13,725 bases of DNA from Candidatus Iainarchaeum sp. (GTDB taxonomy: Archaea; Iainarchaeota; Iainarchaeia; Iainarchaeales; CSSED10-239): contig PWLL01000005.1 of assembly GCA_003559395.1 (NCBI GenBank), forward strand, positions 1 to 13,725. The letters are read 5' to 3'. The notes under the pieces were generated by a model. That model searched no databases, was not told where the DNA came from, and worked only from the letters and a program-made list of their open reading frames with translations. Positions 477 to 13,725 of the stretch are shown here, one piece after another. The translations under genes and the position numbers were made by a program. Position 1 is the stretch's first letter, and each line of letters opens with the position of its first letter.

Positions 477-1078
477 AATTTCTCTTTTAAAACTCTTTTG
501 CTTAAGGTTTCAGGGACCTTAAATTCTTTTAAAAAATTAATTGTAATGAGTGGGTCAACAACCTCTTCTATCTTTCTTGCATAACTACAAAATAAAAAAT
601 CAACTCTTTTATCCATACAAACCTCATATACAAAAAAAGATTGTTTTATTGTTTTAATGGCTTTTGATTTTTGTTTTCTATAATCGTCAAGATTAATTAT
701 AATTCTTTTATTATTTTGTTTAGCTAGATTTGCAGAAGCTTCATCAAAAGCAAGATTTTCAGAAAAAGGATTAAATAGATATTTTATCTTTTTTGATTCT
801 AAAACTTTTGAAATATTATTAACATCTCCACCATATCCAAAAACAACATCTTGAGCAACATTAACATTAAGATCTTTTAACAAATATGCTTTTTTGTAAT
901 TTATTTTTTCAGATTTTGGCAATTCAAAATCTTTTACATCTTCTTTATTATTAACTTCTCTAACAACATAAACGATTGTTATTGAGCAAGAAAGAAAAGC
1001 ATCTTCAATTTCTAAAAAGTTATTGTTCTTAAACAATTCTTCTGAAACAACATCAATATATTCTTCTTTCATAATCAC
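473..1078 (-). CDS. rnp3: RNase P protein component 3 (Rpp30 family, PHP/TIM-barrel-like)
   Basis: 201 aa. The C-terminal two thirds follow the Rpp30 pattern: 'KYLFNPFSEN..FDEASANLAKQNNKRIIINL', then 'RVDFLFCSYARKIEEVVDP', compared with P. horikoshii 'DAIISPW...[20 protein letters not shown] ... RRFLTSSAQEKWDVRYP'. The start in the track is GTG (1076-1078), overlapping the argS TGA. An ATG two codons downstream (1070-1072) is an equally good start. Confidence 0.7.
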   Translation of the reverse strand: MIMKEEYIDVVSEELFKNNNFLEIEDAFLSCSITIVYVVREVNNKEDVKDFELPKSEKINYKKAYLLKDLNVNVAQDVVFGYGGDVNNISKVLESKKIKYLFNPFSENLAFDEASANLAKQNNKRIIINLDDYRKQKSKAIKTIKQSFFVYEVCMDKRVDFLFCSYARKIEEVVDPLITINFLKEFKVPETLSKRVLKEKL

Positions 1079-2775
1079 ATCTTTTTAGGTATTTTTATGC
1101 CTAACAGGTCTAGTGCGTTTCTTAGAGTAATAAGATACGCTTTAGTTATTAATAGTCTTTTATTTTGTAGTTGTTTATCTTCTGACAAAACAACACAAGA
1201 GCTATAAAACTTATTAAACATTCTTGCTAACAACAAACAATAGTTTGCAATAACATGTGGTTTATATTCTTTGGTTGCAAGCTCAATTTTTTCTTTAAAA
1301 TGATTTATCAAAGATAATAAAGTTTTTTCTTCTATTGTCAACTCTATTTTTAATTTATGAATATTTTCTAAAGAAACACCTTCTACTTTTCTTAAAATAC
1401 TTTGTGCTCTAACGCCACTATATTGAACATAGACAGAAGAATCACCTTGTATATCTAAAGCATCTTTTAAAGAAAAGTCAAGGGTTTTATTTAACCCAAG
1501 TTTTAACATCTCAAACTTAATAGTTCCAAAAGCAATGTCTTTTACTATTTGTTGTTCTGTTTCTAGATTGTTTTCTTTTAGTTTCTCTAGAACTTTCTTA
1601 AATAAAAGATCTCTAAAATCTTCATAAAGAATCAACGAGCCTTCTCTTGAAGCCATCTTTTTTGATTCAAAGTTTACTGTTCCGTGCGCTATATGATGAT
1701 GGTAGTTATCTTTATAAATAAGATCAAACAAACAAAAAAGTTGTTTAAAATAAAAAGCCTGTTCAGAACCAACAACATACAAAAAATAAGAAGCGTCAGG
1801 ATATTTTTCTTTTTTTAATAAAACTAACCCTATATCTTTAGCACCATATAAAGGCGCTTTGTTTTGTTTAACTAGCAAAAGCACATCCAGATCTTTTTTT
1901 TTAAGATCTGCAATAATTGCACCTTGGCTTTCATAAATAATATCAGCATGTTTTTTTTGCAAATCTTCTTGTATCTCTAAAAACTTTCTTTCTGATTGAC
2001 TTTCAAAAAAAGAATCATCAAGATAAACATCTAGTTCTTCTGCTATTTTAAAATAACTTTTAACACACATGTCTCTTAGTTCTTTTATTTCTACTTGCAT
2101 TTCTTTGTTATTTTGTATTTTTGATTGAAGTTCGTTTATTTCTTGTTCGTAATCTTTGTTTTCTTTTAGAGTTTGGTTTGCTGAAATATAAATTTCTCCA
2201 AACCATTTTGTTTTATATTTTTCTGGAATATCTTTTTTAGTAAGTTTTTGTTTTTTAAAATACCAATACCACTTAGCAATGTGTGTGCCAACATCTCCAC
2301 TATAAAAAACTGGTTTTGGATCTTCTCCAGAGTATTTTAGTAGTCTATTTATGGATTCTCCAGTAACTATGTTTCTTAGATGACCTACGTGCACTGTCTT
2401 TAAAGGGTTTACATTAAAAGTGTCTATGATTATTTGTTTTGGCGTTTCTTTTTTTGTTTTTCCATAGTCTTTGTCTTTTTCTAGAACTTCTTGTACAAGT
2501 TGTTTAAACAAATAATCATCTGTAATCTTTAGATTTACATATCCGGAGATGCAAGAAAAAGAATATTTGTTTTGAGAAACACTTTTTAGTTTTTCTGTAA
2601 TTTCTTCTGCAATTACTTTTGGATTTTTTTTGTAAATTTTAGATAAAGAAAAAACAGGAAAAGAATAGTCTCCTTGAGTTATTTCTGGTGGTGTTTCTAT
2701 TAGGTTATGTATCTCTTGTTTTGATAGATCAACAAAAGTATCTAAAATTGCACAAAAATCATCTTTTACATTCAT
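1075..2775 (-). CDS. argS: Arginine--tRNA ligase (class I ArgRS)
   Basis: 566 aa. HIGH-type motif 'NPLKTVHVGHLRN'. 'KKMASREGS' stands in place of the ArgRS MSTRxG motif. The C-terminal DALR-like anticodon-binding region ends in the characteristic terminal Met ('...GIKIPKKM'). Confidence 0.95.
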   Translation of the reverse strand: MNVKDDFCAILDTFVDLSKQEIHNLIETPPEITQGDYSFPVFSLSKIYKKNPKVIAEEITEKLKSVSQNKYSFSCISGYVNLKITDDYLFKQLVQEVLEKDKDYGKTKKETPKQIIIDTFNVNPLKTVHVGHLRNIVTGESINRLLKYSGEDPKPVFYSGDVGTHIAKWYWYFKKQKLTKKDIPEKYKTKWFGEIYISANQTLKENKDYEQEINELQSKIQNNKEMQVEIKELRDMCVKSYFKIAEELDVYLDDSFFESQSERKFLEIQEDLQKKHADIIYESQGAIIADLKKKDLDVLLLVKQNKAPLYGAKDIGLVLLKKEKYPDASYFLYVVGSEQAFYFKQLFCLFDLIYKDNYHHHIAHGTVNFESKKMASREGSLILYEDFRDLLFKKVLEKLKENNLETEQQIVKDIAFGTIKFEMLKLGLNKTLDFSLKDALDIQGDSSVYVQYSGVRAQSILRKVEGVSLENIHKLKIELTIEEKTLLSLINHFKEKIELATKEYKPHVIANYCLLLARMFNKFYSSCVVLSEDKQLQNKRLLITKAYLITLRNALDLLGIKIPKKM

Positions 2776-2790
2776 ATTAAATCAATAATA

Positions 2791-2863
2791 CGAGCCCGGT
2801 GGGATTCGAACCCACGACCCACAGCTTAGAAGGCTGTTGCCCTATCCACTAGGCTACGGGCTC
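2791..2863 (-). tRNA. tRNA-Arg (anticodon UCU), 73 nt, no encoded CCA, no intron
   Basis: The reverse complement folds by hand into a canonical cloverleaf. Acceptor GAGCCCG/CGGGCTC. D arm GCCT-AGTGGATA-GGGC. Anticodon stem ACAGC/GCTGT with loop CT-TCT-AA. 5-nt variable loop GGGTC. T arm GTGGG-TTCGAAT-CCCAC. Discriminator G. The GC-rich island in AT-rich DNA is typical of tRNA genes. Confidence 0.9.
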
Positions 2864-2940: not shown

Positions 2941-4374
2941 CTATTGATAAAGTTTATCATAGTGTCTTTGTAGTTCTTCTAACTCATCCATGTATTGTTC
3001 CATAATGCCTTCAACAAACATCATTCCAAATTGTTCTCTATTTTCAAACAATTTTTTGTGTGTTTCATAATATTTGTTTTGTTCTTCAGCACATCTTACA
3101 AACACAGCAGGGAACAAAGATTGTGCTTCATAAACAATAAAATCTTTTATCACTATGTTTACAAGACTGTCATCAAAATAGTCTTCTTTTATCTTAGGAA
3201 CAAGCTCTTCTTGTATCTTTTGACTACCTCCACAATCATAGTCAGAAAACAAATAAACTGTAACTTGTGCGTTTTCATCTCCAATTACATAATCGTCTTC
3301 ATGATCTAACACCGTATAATCTGTAAGATAAGTTGTTTTAAGACTGATTGTATATCCACCATTTGGAATCTCTTGAAAGAACCCATAAAACATCTCTTGT
3401 TCTTCTTCTGTAAGCTCTAACTTTGATACATCTCCTTCAACAAAAAAGAAAGGAAGATGATGTATATTGTAGGTTTCAAAAAGATTTGTTATGTGCTCTG
3501 GTGCGTCAAAGAAATCTACATGGTTTGTTTCAATGGTATCAAAAAACTTTATAAAAAAACTAGCATAATCTGACATCAAGGTACTTTCGATTATGTTTTC
3601 TAGTTCGTCTTCTGTAAAAGCGTGTTCTTGATTATAGATTATATGTAAAACAGGATCTTGTTCTGCATCGTAATCATAACCATCTTGTTCTGTTGTTGAA
3701 AAATCTACTAACGGAAGATCGTTATCTATATCTTCAAGCGCAGCATCTATTCTTTTTTTTAAAACATCATATTCAACAAATCCGTCCATCTTATATCCAT
3801 TAACCATAATTCCAGGAGTTCCTTGAAAACCAAGAACTTCTCGAGCCAAAGTCATATCAGCCATGATTTTGTTTAAGATGTCAGATTCTTCAAAAACAAT
3901 ATCTTCTGAATAATTGTTTTTTGCAATACAAATTTCCATTTCTTCTTGATCTAAATTCAATTCATCATACCAACCTTCAAAAATATCTGTTTGTTCTTGA
4001 ATAATTTGTTGGTTTAGACGATATTGTAGATCTTCTAAAATTTCATAAATCTCTTCTTCTGTATATTCAACATCATCATCCAGACCAGGGTCGTCATCAA
4101 GATCGTCATCAATTCCATTTTCATCAATTTTCTCATCTGCATCTTCAATAGTTGTTGATGGAAGTGCAAATAACAAAACAATAATCACAACTAACAAAGC
4201 ACTTAAAATAGAGATTAACAAAACATCTTTCTTTTGAACATTTTGTTTCTTTTTTTCTATTTTTGGTTTTGTCGTGACTTTTTTATTTTTAGGTTCTGGG
4301 GTTTGTTTTTTTGGGGCTGTGTTTTTCTTCACATTTGTTTTTTTCTTAACAGAACCTTTTTTTTTCTGTACCAA
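2941..4374 (-). CDS. Membrane-anchored, highly acidic protein with degenerate DsbA/thioredoxin-like modules (CGGS instead of CxxC)
   Basis: 477 aa. Residues 1-49 are Lys-rich and a single TM helix lies at about 51-71. An acidic linker (DDDLDDDPGLDDD) follows. Residues ~140-215 ('LNLDQEEMEICIAKNNY...LGFQGTPGIMVNGYKMDGFVEYDVLKKRIDAAL') look like the C-terminal half of a DsbA-family domain. Residues ~369-448 ('AQVTVYLFSDYDCGGSQK...VFVRCAEEQNKYYETHKKLFENREQF') look like the N-terminal half. The start codon is TTG (4372-4374), preceded by AGGTGA. Confidence 0.6.
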   Translation of the reverse strand: MVQKKKGSVKKKTNVKKNTAPKKQTPEPKNKKVTTKPKIEKKKQNVQKKDVLLISILSALLVVIIVLLFALPSTTIEDADEKIDENGIDDDLDDDPGLDDDVEYTEEEIYEILEDLQYRLNQQIIQEQTDIFEGWYDELNLDQEEMEICIAKNNYSEDIVFEESDILNKIMADMTLAREVLGFQGTPGIMVNGYKMDGFVEYDVLKKRIDAALEDIDNDLPLVDFSTTEQDGYDYDAEQDPVLHIIYNQEHAFTEDELENIIESTLMSDYASFFIKFFDTIETNHVDFFDAPEHITNLFETYNIHHLPFFFVEGDVSKLELTEEEQEMFYGFFQEIPNGGYTISLKTTYLTDYTVLDHEDDYVIGDENAQVTVYLFSDYDCGGSQKIQEELVPKIKEDYFDDSLVNIVIKDFIVYEAQSLFPAVFVRCAEEQNKYYETHKKLFENREQFGMMFVEGIMEQYMDELEELQRHYDKLYQ

Positions 4375-4544: not shown

Positions 4545-7001
4545 ATGAACATAAAAGAAATGCCTAAAAAATACGATGCAAAAGAACAAGAAGAAAATAT
4601 TGCAGAATCTTGGAAAAAAAACCAAACTTTTTGTTTTGAAAAAGACAATGTAGATAAACCAATCTATTCTATAGACTCACCACCACCAACAGTTTCTGGC
4701 AAACTACATATTGGACATGCCTATGGTGCAACCATCATGGACTTTATTGCAAGATATAAAAGACTAAAAGGGTATAACGTGTTCTTGCCAATAGGAACAG
4801 ACGATAACGGACTACCCTCTCAAAGACTTGTAGAAAAAATAAAAAAAATAAAAGCAAAAGATATGCCTAAAAAAGAATTTATAAAAATATGTAACGAAGT
4901 AATTAATGGGCCAGAAGGAATAAGAGAAAAATACCTTGATGATTTTAAAAAATGGGGCATAAGTGTTGATTGGAATATTAATTATTCAACAATCGATAAA
5001 CACTCAAGAAAAATATCTCAACAACACTTTATTGAACTTTATAATATTGGACGCGCATACAGAAAAGACGCAGCCACCATGTGGTGCCCTTTATGTCAAA
5101 CTGCCATTTCACAGGTTGAGCTTTGTGATTTAGAAAAAGAGGCTTTATTTAACGATATTGTTTTTAAGATAGAAGAAGAAGATCTAGAAGAAAAATTTAC
5201 AATATCAACAACAAGACCAGAACTTCTACCTGCTTGTGTTGCTGTTTTTTATCATCCAACAGATGTAAGATACAAAAAATATCAAGGAAAAAAAGCAACC
5301 GTGCCTTTATTTAACTTTAAAGTGCCTATTTTAGAGGATGAAAGAGCAGACCCAGACAAAGGAACAGGAATGGTTATGTGTTGTACGTTTGGTGATCAAA
5401 CAGATATTGAATGGCAAAAACTACACAACCTGCCAATAAAAGTAGCAATAACAGATGACGGGAAACTTTCTTCGCTTGCTGAAGAATATCAAGGCATGGA
5501 TGTTAATAAAGGAAGAAAAGAAATAATTACTGTATTAAAAGAAAAAGGACTTTTAGTAAATCAAACAAAAATAAAACACACAGTAAACGTTCATGAAAAA
5601 TGTAACACGCCTATTGAGTTTCTTCAATCTAAACAATGGTTTATTAAATATCTAGATCTAAAAGAAGAAATGTTGCTTTGGAGTAAAGAATTTAACTGGA
5701 TTCCTGAATTTTTTAGAAGTAGATATAATAATTGGGTTAATGGTCTTGGTTGGGACTGGTGTGTTTCTAGACAAATCTCTTTTGGAATTCCTTTTCCTAT
5801 ATGGTATTGTAAAAGCTGTGGAGAACCAATATTTGCTAAAGAAAAAGACCTTCCAGTAGATCCAAGCGTAGATAAGCCACCTATAGATGTTTGTCCTAAT
5901 TGTCAATCAAAAAACATCATTCCTGAAACAGATGTGATAAACACATGGGCAACAAGCTCACTCACACCAACAATTGCAAAAGAGCTTATAAAAGGGCACG
6001 ACACCTACGATTTACTTAAAGACACACCCATGGACCTAAGGATAGAAGGACACGACATCATCTCTTTTTGGTTATTTAACACAGTCTTTAGATCAAAGAT
6101 ACATAACAACCAGATTCCTTGGAAAAACGCCATCAACACTGGCTGGATTCTTGATAAAAAAGGAAAGAAGATGGCAAAGTCTGTTGGAAACGTCATTGAG
6201 CCACAAGAGATTGTTGGGAAATATTCAGCTGATATTTTTAGATATTTTTCTGCAACCTATAAGTTAGGATATTACATTCATTTTAATGAAAAAGAACTTA
6301 TAAACGGAAAAAAAACAATCACTAAACTATATAACGCAACAAAATTTGCATATAGTCATCTAGAAGATTATGAACCAAATAAAGAAGATTTAGAAACCCT
6401 TTCAGGAATAGACGCATACATGATACACAAACTAAACAACATAATAACCTCAACAACAAAAAACAACGAAAACTATGATTTTTCAAAAACACTATCTGAA
6501 ATTGATTTGTTTTTTTGGAAAGAGGTTTGTGATAATTATCTAGAAATTGTAAAAGATAGACTCTACAATCCAGAAAAAAGAGGAAAAGAAAAAAGAAAAC
6601 AAGCACAAGCTACGTTGTTTGTTTTGTTTAAAGATATATTAAAGATGTATTCTGTAATCGTTCCGTTTGTTACTGAATATCTTTATGATTTTTATTTTAT
6701 AAGTTATGAAAAAGAAAACACTATACACAAAACTAGCTATCCAACAACCTACGACGTAGATACAAACGAAAACAAAATAAAACAAATAATTGAAATTATT
6801 TCCTTTATAAGAAACTATAAAGCATCTAAAAACCTTTCACTAAAAACAGAAATTAATAAACTAGAAATAGAAACAAAAGAAGATATCACAAACATAGAAA
6901 AAGATCTTAAAGCATGTATGCAAATTAAAGAAATTGCGTTGGTTAAGCTTGAGAGTCCAGATTATAAAACAGAAAGCTTTAAAATCAAAATAAACCTATA
7001 A
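4545..7001 (+). CDS. valS: Valine--tRNA ligase (archaeal type)
   Basis: 818 aa. 'PPPTVSGKLHIGHA' (HIGH). 'KMAKSVGN' (KMSKS). Editing-domain block 'TTRPELLPACVAVFYHPTDVRY...DPDKGTGMVMCCTFGDQTDIEW' is typical of archaeal ValRS. Cys pairs 'CPLCQT', 'CKSCGE' and 'CPNCQS' are consistent with zinc knuckles. Confidence 0.9.
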   Translation: MNIKEMPKKYDAKEQEENIAESWKKNQTFCFEKDNVDKPIYSIDSPPPTVSGKLHIGHAYGATIMDFIARYKRLKGYNVFLPIGTDDNGLPSQRLVEKIKKIKAKDMPKKEFIKICNEVINGPEGIREKYLDDFKKWGISVDWNINYSTIDKHSRKISQQHFIELYNIGRAYRKDAATMWCPLCQTAISQVELCDLEKEALFNDIVFKIEEEDLEEKFTISTTRPELLPACVAVFYHPTDVRYKKYQGKKATVPLFNFKVPILEDERADPDKGTGMVMCCTFGDQTDIEWQKLHNLPIKVAITDDGKLSSLAEEYQGMDVNKGRKEIITVLKEKGLLVNQTKIKHTVNVHEKCNTPIEFLQSKQWFIKYLDLKEEMLLWSKEFNWIPEFFRSRYNNWVNGLGWDWCVSRQISFGIPFPIWYCKSCGEPIFAKEKDLPVDPSVDKPPIDVCPNCQSKNIIPETDVINTWATSSLTPTIAKELIKGHDTYDLLKDTPMDLRIEGHDIISFWLFNTVFRSKIHNNQIPWKNAINTGWILDKKGKKMAKSVGNVIEPQEIVGKYSADIFRYFSATYKLGYYIHFNEKELINGKKTITKLYNATKFAYSHLEDYEPNKEDLETLSGIDAYMIHKLNNIITSTTKNNENYDFSKTLSEIDLFFWKEVCDNYLEIVKDRLYNPEKRGKEKRKQAQATLFVLFKDILKMYSVIVPFVTEYLYDFYFISYEKENTIHKTSYPTTYDVDTNENKIKQIIEIISFIRNYKASKNLSLKTEINKLEIETKEDITNIEKDLKACMQIKEIALVKLESPDYKTESFKIKINL

Positions 7002-9238: not shown

Positions 9239-9922
9239 ATGCTTGTACTTTATTTCTTTCTTTTTTATATTTTAGGAATCATACTTTGGCTTACAAGAAA
9301 GTATGATTTTTTCACAATTTCTATAACTTTTGTTATCTCTGCTGCTTTTTTAGGTTTTGGAAACCTAGAAATGTTTATCTATGTGCTTATTTTCTTTTGC
9401 GCTGCTGAAGGAATAACCCTTATATTAGATAGATATAAAGAAAATAAACACTCAAAAAGATCCTACAAAAATCTTTTAGGAAACTGCTTAGCAGGGACTG
9501 TGTTTATATCTCTTGGATATCCAGTGGTTGCAATTGCTGCCATATGTGCATCTTTTTGTGACACTCTTTCTTCTGAAGTAGGAATGTTGTCTTCTAGCAA
9601 GCCTAAACTAATAACCACTTTTAAAAACGTAGAAAAAGGAACTGATGGAGGAATTACTTTTATTGGCTATCTGGCTGCATTTGTGGTTTGTTTTTTTACA
9701 ATTGCTTATTTTTATTATGTGCCTGGGTTTATAGGATCAGATTTTGTATATACAAGTAGTTTTTTTATTATTGTTGGTGTTTGTGGAATATTAGGAACCA
9801 CGATAGATAGTTATATAGGAGCAACTTTAGAAAAAAAAGGACTATCCAACAACTATCAAACTAATTTTTTAGCAAGTTCTTTTGCTGGATTAATTGCTCT
9901 TTTGTTATTATATTTTTTATAA
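9239..9922 (+). CDS. DUF92/TMEM19-family polytopic membrane protein (family of the plant phytyl-phosphate kinase VTE6)
   Basis: 227 aa with multiple TM helices. Family-like motifs are 'NLLGNCLAG', 'CDTLSSEVGMLS', 'ITT...V.KGTDGGITFIGYLAA' and 'GILGTTIDSYIGATLE'. It starts 3 nt after the rps3ae stop. Confidence 0.75.
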   Translation: MLVLYFFLFYILGIILWLTRKYDFFTISITFVISAAFLGFGNLEMFIYVLIFFCAAEGITLILDRYKENKHSKRSYKNLLGNCLAGTVFISLGYPVVAIAAICASFCDTLSSEVGMLSSSKPKLITTFKNVEKGTDGGITFIGYLAAFVVCFFTIAYFYYVPGFIGSDFVYTSSFFIIVGVCGILGTTIDSYIGATLEKKGLSNNYQTNFLASSFAGLIALLLLYFL

Positions 9923-9931
9923 AGGTAAAAC

Positions 9932-10360
9932 ATGTATCTTAAAGAAAAAATAAAGTTTGTGTTGTATTTTGTTGTTTATTATTTTGTATTGTTGGTGTTT
10001 GGGTTATATGTTGTTGGTCCTTTTCTTATGGACCTACAATATAGATTGCTAGACCTTATTTTTAAAGACATATCTACACAACTTGTTTTTGTTGCACACT
10101 GTAGCGGAATCATAAGTATTGTTACATATCTTTCTGTTGTCTTGGCTTTATTGACAATAAATAAAAGAGTTATTTTTAAAAAAATAGTGACTAGTGTTTT
10201 GTTATTGTTACTATACAACCTCTTTAGACTATCTGTAATTGTATGGGTTGCAAAAAAAAGTATAGAACAAGCCAACACAACACATGTTGTTTCTTGGTTT
10301 CTGGTTTTTGGGTTGTTAATCTTACTAATTTTAAAAGATTTTAAGAAAATAAAAATATAA
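9932..10360 (+). CDS. Minimal exosortase/archaeosortase-family protein (4 predicted TM helices)
   Basis: 142 aa. 'VAHCSGIISI' carries Cys57 (10100-10102). 'LYNLFRLSVIV' carries Arg99 (10226-10228). 'TTHVVSWFL' carries His118 (10283-10285). All three sit in or at the edge of TM helices, in the order and spacing of the conserved Cys/Arg/His of the exosortase/archaeosortase core. AAGGT lies 6 nt upstream of the ATG. Confidence 0.65.
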   Translation: MYLKEKIKFVLYFVVYYFVLLVFGLYVVGPFLMDLQYRLLDLIFKDISTQLVFVAHCSGIISIVTYLSVVLALLTINKRVIFKKIVTSVLLLLLYNLFRLSVIVWVAKKSIEQANTTHVVSWFLVFGLLILLILKDFKKIKI

Positions 10361-10365
10361 AAAAA

Positions 10366-10388
10366 GTTTTATCTTTAAAAGATAAAAC
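10366..10388. terminator. Palindrome between convergent genes, a possible bidirectional terminator
   Basis: GTTTTATC (10366-10373) is the exact reverse complement of GATAAAAC (10381-10388), with 'TTTAAAA' between. It is flanked by an A5 run (T5 on the minus strand). It fills almost the whole 27-nt gap between the archaeosortase-like gene and secD and touches the secD stop codon. Confidence 0.4.
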
Positions 10389-12013
10389 TACTTAGATGTG
10401 ATTCTTTTTGCAACCTCTGCATATGCAGGTCTTGTTATTAGTATACCAATGGCTGCACCAATAACAATCGTTATTGCAAAACCAACAAGCTTACTTAAAC
10501 CAACACTAAAAAAGATTATTGGAAACATTGTTGCTACGATAGTTGCGCCTGCAGCAAACACAATAAAAAACGCTTTCTTGACCCTATGAACAAGGCTTTC
10601 AGAAACCGTCTCGTCATCATCTTTCTTTTTACTTTTGATTAGTTGATCAGTTATGATTATTTTATGATCCACGCCTGTACCAATGGTTGCAAGAATTCCT
10701 GCAACAGCAGCAAGATCTAGTCTAAAGTTTATAAGTGAGAAAATTCCTAACAAGATTATTATCTCAGAAGCACCAGCCAACATAATTGGAATAGAAATTC
10801 CAAAGTGTCTGTATCTTACAAACAACACTAAACCAACAGACAACAAAGCAATAATACCAATCCATACAGAATTTCTTAAAAACTCATCTCCAAGATAAGG
10901 AGAAATAGATTCTGTACTTATACTGTCAATAGCAATTGGTAATGATCCAGATTCTAATAAAACAACAAGCTCGTCAAGTCTTTCAGCTGCGTCTTGTCTT
11001 GTTTCTCCACCACCTGTGATTGTTAATGATTGAAAAGTATCAAATGCAGGAGAATCTATTGAAGGAGCGTTCATATTTGCAACACTTGGTGTTAAAGAAA
11101 TAATACTTTTAAGACCTGTGGCTTCCCATACCCAAGGAACATTATCTATTTTTTCTTTAGTTATTATTCTGTATCCTATTTCTTCTAGAACTTCAATTGT
11201 GCTTTCATCTATAGATAAAGGAACGACAGCTCTTGGATAGCTTTCATAAGCACTTGTAAGTGAAGAAATTTGGTCTTCTGTTAGTTCTTGATCAACAACA
11301 AAAAACTCAGTTGTTGTTTGTCTTAATATCTCATCAATATGCACTGTTTGACTACCAATCATGTCAGGGTTTGTAGGCACTTGTCTTTCTTCATCATAAA
11401 GTTCTTTATCTAAAACAAAGATAGAATCAGTTGGCCTATCAATAAAAAAATAAGTTTTTTCACAATCATACTCTATTTCTGCACCATAGCCCACAGCAGT
11501 ACATCTGTGAAAAGCCATTCTTGAAAAATTATCAGCAGCTGATGATGATAAAACAAAAGGCAAAGTCCATTGATGGCCACTAGGAGTATCTGAAACTCCA
11601 AAGCCTCTTGCAGGGTCTTTATAGATAGTTCTTATATCCTCTCCAAAAAACAAAACATTTCCATCTAAGATGGCCTCAAATTTACCCTGTCTTAACAAAT
11701 TGCTTCTTAATCTTGCAATTTCTTCAGCATCAGATTCTGCAATCTGCGCAACAATATACTGATTTCCTGAAGAAGTTACTCTAGTATCCATTACTCCAGC
11801 CCAATCTAGCCTTCTAGAAATGATAGATGAGATTCTAGATAGATCTTCTGGAGATACTGGTTCCTCTAACATTATTTGAAAAACAGTTCCTCCTCTAAAA
11901 TCAACACCATATTGCAGGCCTTTGGAAGCAAGCACAAGCAAAGCTATAAATATCAATATAAACCATATAACAATTATTGGTTTTTTTAATAGTTGTTTCA
12001 TTGTTGGTTTCAC
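10388..12013 (-). CDS. secD: Protein-export membrane protein SecD
   Basis: 541 aa. N-terminal TM helix, 'GVDFRGGT', a large (~340 aa) extracytoplasmic domain, then five TM helices. C-terminal block 'GTGVDHKIII...LVGFAITIVIGAAIG' resembles E. coli SecD '...GMAVDANVLI...KGFAITTGIGV'. AGGTGA lies 8 nt upstream, and the start overlaps the secF stop in a 4-nt ATGA overlap. Confidence 0.85.
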   Translation of the reverse strand: MKPTMKQLLKKPIIVIWFILIFIALLVLASKGLQYGVDFRGGTVFQIMLEEPVSPEDLSRISSIISRRLDWAGVMDTRVTSSGNQYIVAQIAESDAEEIARLRSNLLRQGKFEAILDGNVLFFGEDIRTIYKDPARGFGVSDTPSGHQWTLPFVLSSSAADNFSRMAFHRCTAVGYGAEIEYDCEKTYFFIDRPTDSIFVLDKELYDEERQVPTNPDMIGSQTVHIDEILRQTTTEFFVVDQELTEDQISSLTSAYESYPRAVVPLSIDESTIEVLEEIGYRIITKEKIDNVPWVWEATGLKSIISLTPSVANMNAPSIDSPAFDTFQSLTITGGGETRQDAAERLDELVVLLESGSLPIAIDSISTESISPYLGDEFLRNSVWIGIIALLSVGLVLFVRYRHFGISIPIMLAGASEIIILLGIFSLINFRLDLAAVAGILATIGTGVDHKIIITDQLIKSKKKDDDETVSESLVHRVKKAFFIVFAAGATIVATMFPIIFFSVGLSKLVGFAITIVIGAAIGILITRPAYAEVAKRITSK

Positions 12014-13089
12014 CTTCTTCTCTCATTTTTTTTATTTACATAGGTTATAAGTGTAGGTGCGTTAAAGAACCATGTAGATACAAGATCTCCAAGCAATCCA
12101 CATAATAGCACGGTTGCAATTTCAAAAATAACTAACATTTGTGTATAATAAGACACTAACAACATAACTAAGACAGTAAAGATAGTTGTAAAAGTCATTG
12201 TAAGTCCTGTTTTTATAGATGTATTTGCTGCAGAAACAGGATCTCTTTTTTCTTTTAATAGTTTTGTACTTAATAGGATGTCAGTATCAACGGAATATCC
12301 CACTAACATCAGCAAAGCAGGAATCGTTGTTAGATTTAGTGGTAGTCCAAGAACCGCCATTCCTGCAAGAGCAGTAAAAACATCAAACACAGATGAAAAA
12401 ACAATCAATCCTGAAGGGATAATTTCTCTGAAAAATAAAAAAATAACAATTATTAATAAAATAAAAGCAATTATTCCAACTCTTACAGAACTGTCATAAA
12501 AATCGCTTCCTAAAGTTGCAGCAACTTCTCTTATAGAAATTCTATCAGTATCTGCAATATTTAGTTCTTCTTGAAGTACTGCAATTACTCTTTGATTAAA
12601 GTTATTTCCTGCTAGTATGATTGTTTCTCCAAGATATTCTCTTAGTTCATCTTTATTGGTTATTGCGTCTACATAGTCAATATCTGCATTATCTAAAAAG
12701 TTTCTTTCTCTTAAAGGAATTAGTATTTCTTTTGATTGTATTTTTAATTCATCTAGACTAAGATTTAAAAAATCAACTTCTCTTCTTGCTTCTCTTGCTT
12801 GTAAAACATCTTCTTGATCAGAAAACTCTATTATTAGTCCATATTCTGTTGGACTTCTAATCTCATTAACATAAACTTCCATTAGATTAAATTCTGTTGT
12901 AAATCTTTGCTCTATATTTGAAAAGTCTTTTTCTTCATCATATCTTACAATTATTTGGTTTCCTCCACGAAGATCAAGTCCTCTTTCTATTCCAGGAGAT
13001 ACGAATATCAAATATGTGAATACAAGTAACAATACTAAAGGAACAATAAACATTTTTTTATAGTTTTTATGATTATAAAATTTGACCAT
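12010..13089 (-). CDS. secF: Protein-export membrane protein SecF
   Basis: 359 aa. N-terminal TM helix, 'GLDLRGG', a shorter extracytoplasmic domain, then five TM helices with 'VGYSVDTDILL', compare E. coli SecF 'IGYSLNDSIVV'. The secF-then-secD order matches the archaeal arrangement as I recall it. GGTGA lies 7 nt upstream of the ATG. Confidence 0.85.
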   Translation of the reverse strand: MVKFYNHKNYKKMFIVPLVLLLVFTYLIFVSPGIERGLDLRGGNQIIVRYDEEKDFSNIEQRFTTEFNLMEVYVNEIRSPTEYGLIIEFSDQEDVLQAREARREVDFLNLSLDELKIQSKEILIPLRERNFLDNADIDYVDAITNKDELREYLGETIILAGNNFNQRVIAVLQEELNIADTDRISIREVAATLGSDFYDSSVRVGIIAFILLIIVIFLFFREIIPSGLIVFSSVFDVFTALAGMAVLGLPLNLTTIPALLMLVGYSVDTDILLSTKLLKEKRDPVSAANTSIKTGLTMTFTTIFTVLVMLLVSYYTQMLVIFEIATVLLCGLLGDLVSTWFFNAPTLITYVNKKNERRR

Positions 13090-13233
13090 GTATTTTTCAC
13101 CGATTGTAATCTTTTTTACTATTTTTTTTAAAAATAAGTAATAATAATTATTAAGGTTTTATAAAATATTATATATATATAAACTATTATAAACCTAATT
13201 ATTTTCAAAAAAATAACAAATATCCTAAAATAT

Positions 13234-13725
13234 TTAATTGACAAGACAATATAAGTAATCTATTTGTCTATAAGTTGTGTTGTTTCTTGTTTGTTTAGTA
13301 AGTATAATTGATTTATGATATTCTATGATCTTCTCTAAAACAAAAGTAATTTTTTTTTTTGAAATATTTACATACACATAATTCTTTTTTTTGTTTATTT
13401 TATTAAGAAATAACTTTTTAAGAAAAAAAGCATCTTCTTGTAAAGCTCTATAATAAATACCAACATCTAATAAAACAATAGTGTTTTTTTGAAAACTTTT
13501 AAAAAATGCATGTTGCTCTTTGAAAAAACAAAGCTTGTTTTTGTATTTTTCTGTAACTTTATTTTTATAAAAAAAAACATAGTTGTTAAGATAAATATGT
13601 TTTGTTTGTATATTATCAATTATTTTTTTATGTTTTGCATGTTTTATATATCCTAGATAACTGTTAATAGAACTTACTAAACTAGATGTGTGATCATAAT
13701 AATAAACAACCTTGTTTTTATCTAA
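13234..13725 (-). CDS. 3' part of an ORF truncated by the window edge: RT-thumb-like segment plus MutS domain-I-like C-terminal module (possible DGR-type reverse transcriptase)
   Basis: Not in the ORF track because it has no start in the window. Hand translation of the minus strand from 13725 gives 163 sense codons and a TAA at 13234-13236: LDKNKVVYYYDHTSSLVSSINSYLGYIKHAKHKKIIDNIQTKHIYLNNYVFFYKNKVTEKYKNKLCFFKEQHAFFKSFQKNTIVLLDVGIYYRALQEDAFFLKKLFLNKINKKKNYVYVNISKKKITFVLEKIIEYHKSIILTKQTRNNTTYRQIDYLYCLVN*. That it is coding is fairly secure, since 163 open codons is a long run in DNA this AT-rich. The functional call is tentative. Confidence 0.5.
   Translation of the reverse strand, partial: LDKNKVVYYYDHTSSLVSSINSYLGYIKHAKHKKIIDNIQTKHIYLNNYVFFYKNKVTEKYKNKLCFFKEQHAFFKSFQKNTIVLLDVGIYYRALQEDAFFLKKLFLNKINKKKNYVYVNISKKKITFVLEKIIEYHKSIILTKQTRNNTTYRQIDYLYCLVN

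Follow-up and report, generated by a model that had tools for sequence, protein, structure and literature searches.

A diversity-generating retroelement reverse transcriptase with a predicted C-terminal MutS domain I-like module in an archaeon

The stretch of Candidatus Iainarchaeum sp. DNA analyzed here (13,725 nt of contig PWLL01000005.1, hereafter the window) ends within an open reading frame (ORF) on the minus strand, at 13234-13725, that is very probably the 3' third of the reverse transcriptase (RT) gene of a chromosomal diversity-generating retroelement (DGR) in an archaeon of low guanine-plus-cytosine (GC) content. The RT bears a C-terminal MutS-like (MSL) module, which may act on mismatch-dense intermediates. 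That the RT is of the DGR type follows from its motifs and its closest structural relatives; its tail is a MutS-derived domain, not a MutS. The features of this region, with the corresponding residues of the fragment encoded in the window and of the full-length protein (P0001, described below), are as follows:

13234-13725, minus strand: C-terminal 163 codons and TAA stop of a 502-codon gene for a DGR RT-MSL fusion (P0001 residues 340-502)
13552-13725, minus strand: post-thumb linker (fragment residues 1-58, P0001 residues 340-397), comprising a beta-hairpin, two helices and a second hairpin
13636-13662, minus strand: S-Y-L-G-Y-I-K-H-A motif (fragment residues 22-30; family consensus SYLGHFKHA)
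13237-13551, minus strand: MSL module (fragment residues 59-163, P0001 residues 398-502; ~105 residues)
13447-13461, minus strand: G-I-Y-Y-R, counterpart of the mismatch-binding G-D-F-Y-E of MutS (G37-E41 in Taq MutS), codons read from the sequence
13090-13233, no strand: AT-rich spacer of 144 nt that separates the RT-MSL stop from the start of secF and marks where the DGR cassette ends downstream

The reverse transcriptase and its complete reading frame

Translation of the window gave 163 sense codons and a TAA stop (13234-13236) in an ORF that is open at the window end; the other two frames there are rich in stops. The missing 5' part came from two sources. Logan contig L001 (run SRR490128), found by exact look-up of the SecF protein, overlaps the window over 9729-13725 with 1 mismatch in 3997 nt and runs 720 nt past its edge, extending the ORF to 403 codons with the 5' end still open. 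A homology search with these 403 residues gave P0001 (Joint Genome Institute, 502 aa), the full-length protein, whose sole difference from the extended ORF is residue 393 (N in P0001, K in the ORF). The ORF reaches ~1017 nt past the window end, and the RT and MSL domains lie in it as one continuous frame. The 163-aa fragment alone found no match in a word-indexed homology search and nothing meaningful in an NCBIfam search.

The RT portion leaves little doubt as to its class. Pfam RVT_1 matched the 403-aa ORF at E=1e-14 (E=3.3e-16 in a further scan), and the motifs YFLQLDIHNFFMSID, GLPIGNLTSQLFANVYLNELD and YVRYVDDFVF can be read directly from it. The DGR-specific form of motif 4, [ILV]GxxxSQ, is present as IGNLTSQ (in both L001 and P0001) and the catalytic motif 5, YxDD, as YVDD; in an alignment of 100 homologues G227, N228, S231 and Q232 are invariant. 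The best phmmer match of P0001 in the PDB was bRT, the DGR RT of Bordetella phage (8ub7_A, E=3.9e-40), with the best group II intron RT at E=2.5e-12, and the NCBIfam models for group II intron RTs, retron RTs and Drt3a matched below threshold only. An AlphaFold2 model of P0001 built with 100 homologues was of high confidence (pLDDT 92.8, pTM 0.84), with disorder only at residues 1-19, and when it was compared with the PDB by Foldseek the top five structures were all bRT states, 8ub7_A again being the best (E=1.2e-24, TM-score 0.90 on the target, 30% identity).

The window picks up the protein just past this shared core. The phmmer alignment to the 328-aa bRT ends at P0001 residue 334, and the linker that lies beyond it is modeled as a strand pair (338-348), two helices (352-366 and 372-387) and a second strand pair (389-398). 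Its S-Y-L-G-type motif is well kept: among the 100 homologous RTs, S361 is invariant and Y362 is conserved in at least 90%.

The MutS domain I-like module and its distribution

The C-terminal 105 residues of the fusion are predicted to have the fold of MutS domain I, and three lines of evidence bear on this. Pfam MutS_I (PF01624) matched fragment residues 70-150 (13276-13518) at E=6e-6 and 26.9 bits, where the curated (gathering) cut-off is 20.6 bits, and longer versions of the ORF scored 23.2-23.4 bits, likewise above it. A profile of the last ~105 residues made from 36 family members retrieved 26 matches from the PDB, all 26 of them MutS or MSH proteins, headed by residues 16-118 of Taq MutS (E=3.9e-13). 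Finally, the domain modeled by itself (13237-13551) reached a pLDDT of 92.7, and its top 50 Foldseek matches in the PDB were all MutS, MSH2, MSH3 or MSH6 (root-mean-square deviation 1.5-3.9 Å over ~100 columns; TM-score 0.6-0.81 on the query). A phmmer search of the PDB with the single 163-aa fragment returned no MutS, the domain being seen only by Pfam and by family profiles. The Pfam scan found none of MutS domains II-V, including the ABC ATPase, and the ORF stops right after domain I.

A preliminary description of this DNA, made from its letters, had already read 13234-13725 as an ORF cut by the window edge, encoding an RT C-terminus with a conserved block of S-x-x type after the RT core, a last ~90 residues resembling MutS domain I, and secFD alongside. 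All of this is borne out by the minus-strand frame of 163 codons plus TAA, by the RVT_1 match (E=1e-14), IGNLTSQ and YVDD in the upstream part recovered through L001, by the motif at 13636-13662 with its invariant Ser and nearly invariant Tyr in 100 RTs, by the agreement of Pfam, the PDB profile search and the AlphaFold2 fold, and by secF and secD on the same strand.

The family consensus of the module, LFQVG.[YF]YE.[YF]..DA...LGL...GFP...[IV].[EQ]...R, parallels the G-D-F-Y-E, GIP and ICEQ blocks of MutS, and the profile alignment sets its VG.[YF]YE on V36-E41 of Taq MutS. The window protein departs from the consensus at two of these places: where MutS has Phe-X-Glu it reads Y-Y-R (13447-13455), the stacking aromatic being kept as Tyr and Glu41 (Taq numbering) replaced by Arg, and the GFP of the consensus is N-I-S. 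Among 100 homologues, position 430 is Y in 46 and F in 43, so that an aromatic residue stands there in 89%, and position 432 is E in 76 and R in 13; the Arg-432 variants seen in the alignment sample are members of the archaeal clade. Gly428 is kept in 94% of the family and Arg492 in 96%.

Judged by sequence comparison, the MSL fusion appears to be the rule in this RT clade. Precomputed PF01624 matches were present in 66 of the 120 nearest homologues, and a hidden Markov model of the MSL domain matched 105 of the 120, a test that is partly circular in that the model was built from 36 of the same 120 sequences; the 15 that did not match are short (352-460 aa). One homologue (P0012) is labelled Candidatus Woesearchaeota. 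Searched against 1.84 billion representative proteins, the MSL profile gave 8811 matches at E<=1e-3, of which 490 reached E<=1e-10; highest in the ranking stood RT fusions and N-terminally truncated RT fragments, with bona fide MutS proteins appearing at ~1e-16. Short proteins among the top matches were considered as standalone MSL genes and mostly rejected, being N-terminally truncated RT fragments, in which an SYLG-type motif again precedes the MSL domain. Four large proteins from the same search, P0123 (1329 aa), P0136 (2323 aa), P0189 (1756 aa) and P0220 (6471 aa), are neither RTs nor MutS; they contain two to four internal MutS domain I-like copies each, with MSL-profile scores equal to those of the RT fusions.

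The cassette in relatives and in the window organism

The remainder of a DGR can be seen in close relatives, whose RTs are 48-67% identical. Four loci (L056, L057/L058, L059/L060 and L003) have the same order on one strand: a target gene with an Lcl_C domain (PF07603), bAvd (PF22296), a gap of ~190 nt and RT-MSL. Each relative has a repeat pair of ~100-109 nt, one copy closing the target gene at its 3' end, the second abutting the RT, corresponding to the variable repeat (VR) and the template repeat (TR). All five close relatives with upstream sequence (L004 was looked at for its TR/VR pair only) show mismatches concentrated at TR adenines, with binomial P values of 1e-5 to 4e-7. The mismatches that fall on TR adenines, out of all mismatches, and the TR coordinates are:

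L056: 23 of 28; TR at 10038-10143
L057: 21 of 23; TR at 9964-10072
L059: 20 of 21; TR at 9965-10069
L003: 16 of 17; TR at 2731-2831
L004: 17 of 18

When all 47 related loci were scanned more coarsely, 31 proved to have an adenine-biased TR directly next to the RT on its upstream side; most of the other 16 are without upstream sequence. Read in the VR frame, the TRs of the relatives encode TEYSSSNAYKINMNNGNINNNNK.NN..VRCVRE, and the VRs have the same scaffold with its Asn codons diversified.

In this RT clade the TR, in the VR frame, is continuous with the RT ORF, and the start codon annotated for the RT falls within the TR. Many database RTs (e.g., P0020, P0027, P0029 and P0049) have N-terminal Lcl_C Pfam matches, which are spurious and arise because the TR reads into the RT ORF. 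Such proteins were considered as triple fusions of RT, MSL and Lcl_C, a reading we rejected: the Lcl_C match covers profile positions ~72-117 only, and the extreme RT N-terminus is the TR in the VR frame. In L057 the TAA stop of the target gene is aligned to AAA in the TR.

The target genes of the four closest relatives (L003, 88-2013; L056, 8495-9376; L057, 7574-9205; L059, 8052-9248) encode proteins that all end in the variable Lcl_C domain, that of L003 with a PKD domain as well. All four start with K-x-I-[SE]-P-L-I-A-x-I-L-[IL]-[IV]-V-V, which resembles an archaeal class III (type IV pilin-like) signal; Pfam Pilin_N stays below threshold on them (L059, E=4e-4 and 21.6 bits, the cut-off being 25.2; L056, E=0.024). 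The sequences suggest that these targets are diversified pilus-like adhesins.

The DGRs of the relatives sit among archaeal chromosomal genes (histone, prefoldin, eRF1, threonyl-tRNA synthetase, FtsZ, UvrA/C). The gene downstream of the RT varies among them (DUF4349, FtsZ, a small hypothetical gene), so the chromosomal position of the cassette is not conserved. In L059 (698-3235) and L060 (684-3221) an intein that includes a LAGLIDADG endonuclease domain splits the eRF1 gene.

For the window organism itself, the N-terminus of P0001 carries the relevant trace. The protein starts MNNGNINNNNKTNNKQVRCVREHKF, matching the TR-encoded peptides of the relatives, and its N-terminus (MNNGNINNNNKTNNKQVRCVRE) is a translated template repeat in frame with the RT (region of residues 1-25), these residues being disordered in the model; the organism therefore has the 3' two-thirds of a TR, which overlap the start of the RT. 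The preliminary description had also named what would count against it: an upstream part without RT motifs, no significant RVT or MutS_I match, and no adenine-biased TR/VR pair in the neighborhood. None of this was borne out, and its reading of the locus as a possible DGR is supported; such pairs stand beside the RT in 31 of the 47 related loci, and none lies inside the window. In its 13.2 kb downstream of the RT we found no TR/VR pair, low-complexity chance repeats only; no sequence like the initiation of mutagenic homing (IMH) element GTGCGTTGTGTTCGCGA within 3 mismatches; and no VRCVR-like peptide in any frame. On these grounds we rejected the idea that the window itself contains a TR/VR pair. 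Degenerate-pattern searches for the upstream DNA gave 0 matches in genome contigs and 0 in viral contigs; among the matches listed from metagenome contigs were relatives, the contig encoding P0001 not being one of them; and a chimeric query (the target C-terminus of the closest relative joined to the Avd of that relative) gave 19 Lcl_C matches and no Avd match. By analogy with the relatives, the DNA past 13725 would hold, in order, the rest of the RT, a TR of ~105 nt over the RT start codon, bAvd, and a surface-protein gene with a 3' VR (Lcl_C, C-type-lectin-like), the Avd and VR probably falling within roughly 1-1.5 kb beyond the RT start.

On its other side the ORF is followed, on the same strand, by secF (12010-13089) and secD (10388-12013), which overlap by 4 nt (12010-12013); the two look like one operon, co-oriented with RT-MSL and directly downstream of it. 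The spacer at 13090-13233 showed no repeat, RNA family or terminator. The other genes of the window are archaeal housekeeping genes, encoding ribosomal proteins S3Ae and S15, a RIO/Kdo-type kinase, a DUF92 protein, an 818-aa class I aminoacyl-tRNA synthetase (4545-7001) and arginyl-tRNA synthetase, along with a tRNA-Arg gene; a match to the Rpp14/Pop5 RNase P subunit was below threshold. An archaeal origin of the window is supported, although a GTDB search with the 818-aa synthetase returned no relative. Its GC content is 23-34%, with ~23% in the RT-MSL region. The tRNA-Arg gene (anticodon TCT; 2791-2863, minus strand) lies 16 nt upstream of the arginyl-tRNA synthetase gene (1075-2775, minus strand), and a 477-codon ORF with a TTG start (2941-4374, minus strand) ends in ~90 residues that match Thioredoxin_4 (E=4.9e-21), its N-terminal ~350 residues being without a Pfam match.

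Possible roles of the module and relation to known DGRs

If the element works in the manner established for DGRs, the RT with Avd would copy the TR RNA into cDNA, placing random nucleotides opposite template adenines, and the cDNA would replace the VR and so diversify the ligand-binding face of the target protein. The MSL module, placed right after the thumb-like region of the RT, could then bind the mismatch-dense duplexes that result (the cDNA:VR heteroduplex, the RNA:cDNA hybrid, or both); such binding might keep the RT complex on these intermediates or shield them from correction, giving more mutagenic retrohoming. A part in mismatch handling is supported indirectly by the antagonism between mismatch repair and DGR retrohoming: knockout of mutS in Bacteroides raises retrohoming 5-10 fold, the effect of host MutS being all-or-nothing (10.1101/2024.11.15.621889), and a dominant-negative MutL was put into an Escherichia coli DGR system to suppress mismatch repair (10.64898/2026.07.21.739853). 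That 76% of the family retain G-x-[FY]-Y-E, the mismatch motif, also counts for such a role.

We would tentatively go one step further, to a proposal that we ourselves consider rather doubtful: that MutS domain I, fused as it is to the RT, handles heteroduplexes in cis and would either mask the adenine-derived mispairs of its own RT from surveillance or license their fixation into the VR, and that the archaeal change of Glu to Arg would retune it for hosts lacking MutS and MutL or for RNA:DNA hybrids. If this were true, a large DGR lineage would carry a built-in anti-repair or mismatch-tolerance module, which would explain how DGRs escape the all-or-nothing MutS correction seen in Bacteroides.

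Several points weigh against a mismatch-directed role and, more broadly, against the reading of the locus given here. The replacement of Glu by Arg and of GFP by N-I-S in the archaeal clade means that classical mismatch recognition may be altered or lost. Many archaea are without MutS and MutL, probably including this host, which would weaken an anti-repair role there. Retrohoming in Bordetella does not require mutS (Wu et al., 2018, PMC5758913), and the Bordetella bRT-Avd complex mutagenizes without an MSL module, so the module is not intrinsic to the mechanism. No experiment on MSL, and no reported function for it, was found in the literature searched. Lastly, we infer an active cassette in an organism where it is known from the RT gene and the TR-encoded N-terminus alone.

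The main rival, to our minds possible and on the whole unlikely, leaves the identity of the DGR RT unchanged and takes the MSL module to be a repurposed scaffold for binding nucleic acid or protein (e.g., the TR RNA, the RNA:cDNA hybrid or Avd), with the MutS fold retained and its mismatch chemistry gone from the archaeal clade. Such a scaffold would fit the exchange of Glu for Arg in Phe-X-Glu and of GFP for N/D-[IL]-x seen in that clade, and likewise the absence of every other MutS domain from an ORF that ends at the domain boundary and the position of the module in cis after the thumb-like region, where, to judge from the domain order, the nascent duplex would exit. Against it stand the residues that the family has kept (the aromatic in 89%, Gly428 in 94%, Arg492 in 96%) and above all the Glu itself, whose presence in 76% of members indicates that the ancestral function probably used MutS-like DNA contacts; moreover, the limit that mismatch repair sets on DGR output supplies a selective rationale for a mismatch-directed role.

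It is improbable that the element is an orphan or decaying DGR, in which RT-MSL remains intact but the TR, the Avd or the target is missing or no longer works, with no diversification. Two observations would agree with decay, namely the 13.2 kb downstream of the RT in which no TR/VR pair and no IMH-like or VR-like sequence is found, and an RT neighborhood that differs in every relative and so points to frequent rearrangement; however, the cassette of the relatives is always upstream of the RT, that is, beyond the window edge, the 502-aa ORF is complete with its catalytic motifs intact, and its N-terminus encodes an Asn-rich TR peptide with the VRCVRE end, a pattern identical to that of relatives with working TR/VR pairs. 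That the gene is no DGR RT at all, being instead a group II intron, retron or defense-associated RT with an AT-rich, low-complexity tail that resembles MutS by chance, is refuted: the sub-threshold NCBIfam matches to group II intron, retron and Drt3a models, the failure of the 163-aa fragment alone to find a homologue or a MutS, and the ~23% GC of the region are outweighed by the IGxxxSQ motif, by a lead of bRT over every other RT of 28 orders of magnitude in E-value and its first place in the structural ranking, by the adenine-specific TR/VR pairs of the relatives, and by a MutS_I assignment that holds by Pfam threshold, profile and fold.

As a DGR RT fused to an MSL module, the window protein has precedents that have been reported and barely studied, and it is a new, archaeal and motif-divergent member of the group. 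The MSL module named in the preliminary description is real and was described by Wu et al. (2018, NAR 46:11, PMC5758913), who found C-terminal extensions of up to ~150 aa in ~20% of DGR RTs and noted weak MutS_I identity in the extension of three related ones. Like these three, the protein described here is a DGR RT with a MutS_I-like post-thumb extension (~170 aa past the end of the bRT alignment), and avd is present in its relatives; it differs in homology that is established by profile and fold, in a fusion found in 105 of 120 homologues, and in being archaeal with Arg for the motif Glu. The same authors described standalone MSL accessory genes, never without avd, in 16 of 372 DGRs (Wu et al., 2018, PMC5758913); one of these is the Legionella DGR, which is an example of DUF1566-type VRs. 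With these (Legionella and Bacteroides; architecture D of Wu et al.) the element would share a MutS domain I module in a DGR with avd and an Lcl_C/DUF1566 target, the avd and target being known here from relatives; there the module is a separate ORF of 112-283 aa and here it is a C-terminal domain of the RT, a likeness drawn from their description. With an Lcl_C/DUF1566 target, avd and an MSL module (fused to the RT), the window element, as reconstructed from its relatives, would fit the Legionella-type lineage.

The RT shares IG.LTSQLFANVY and Y.DD with that of Bordetella BPP-1 (bRT, PDB 8ub7); bRT, however, has 328 aa, no MSL module and a phage-borne gene, whereas P0001 is ~170 residues longer past the alignment, chromosomal and archaeal, with a TR over the RT start. 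The module in turn resembles domain I of MutS and MSH proteins (Taq 1ewq, E. coli 1e3m, human MSH3 and MSH6) in fold, VG.[FY]Y(E), DA, a GFP equivalent, [IV].[EQ] and a conserved Arg, and differs from them in lacking the connector, core, clamp and ATPase and in having Tyr for Phe, Arg for Glu and NIS for GFP. Like the DGRs of DPANN archaea and of bacteria of the candidate phyla radiation (CPR) (Paul et al., 2017, as cited by Wu et al., 2018), those of the window organism and its relatives are chromosomal DGRs in small, low-GC, uncultivated archaea. In 90% of the CPR set the order is TR-(avd)-RT, avd being encoded on the other strand (Wu et al., 2018, PMC5758913), whereas the relatives here have target-avd-TR-RT on one strand.

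The literature searched mentions the fusion only in passing, for three RTs whose similarity to MutS_I was called "weak"; profile and fold now identify the module as a true MutS domain I, and most members of a large clade, bacterial and archaeal alike, carry it on the RT. A hypervariable surface protein, in all likelihood an adhesin of pilin-like type, is to be expected in the next 2-3 kb of the genome of this archaeon, which is small. Since mismatch repair throttles the output of DGRs, RT-MSL may offer a handle on how mismatch-dense intermediates become fixed, and the module is a candidate part for engineered DGR mutagenesis systems.

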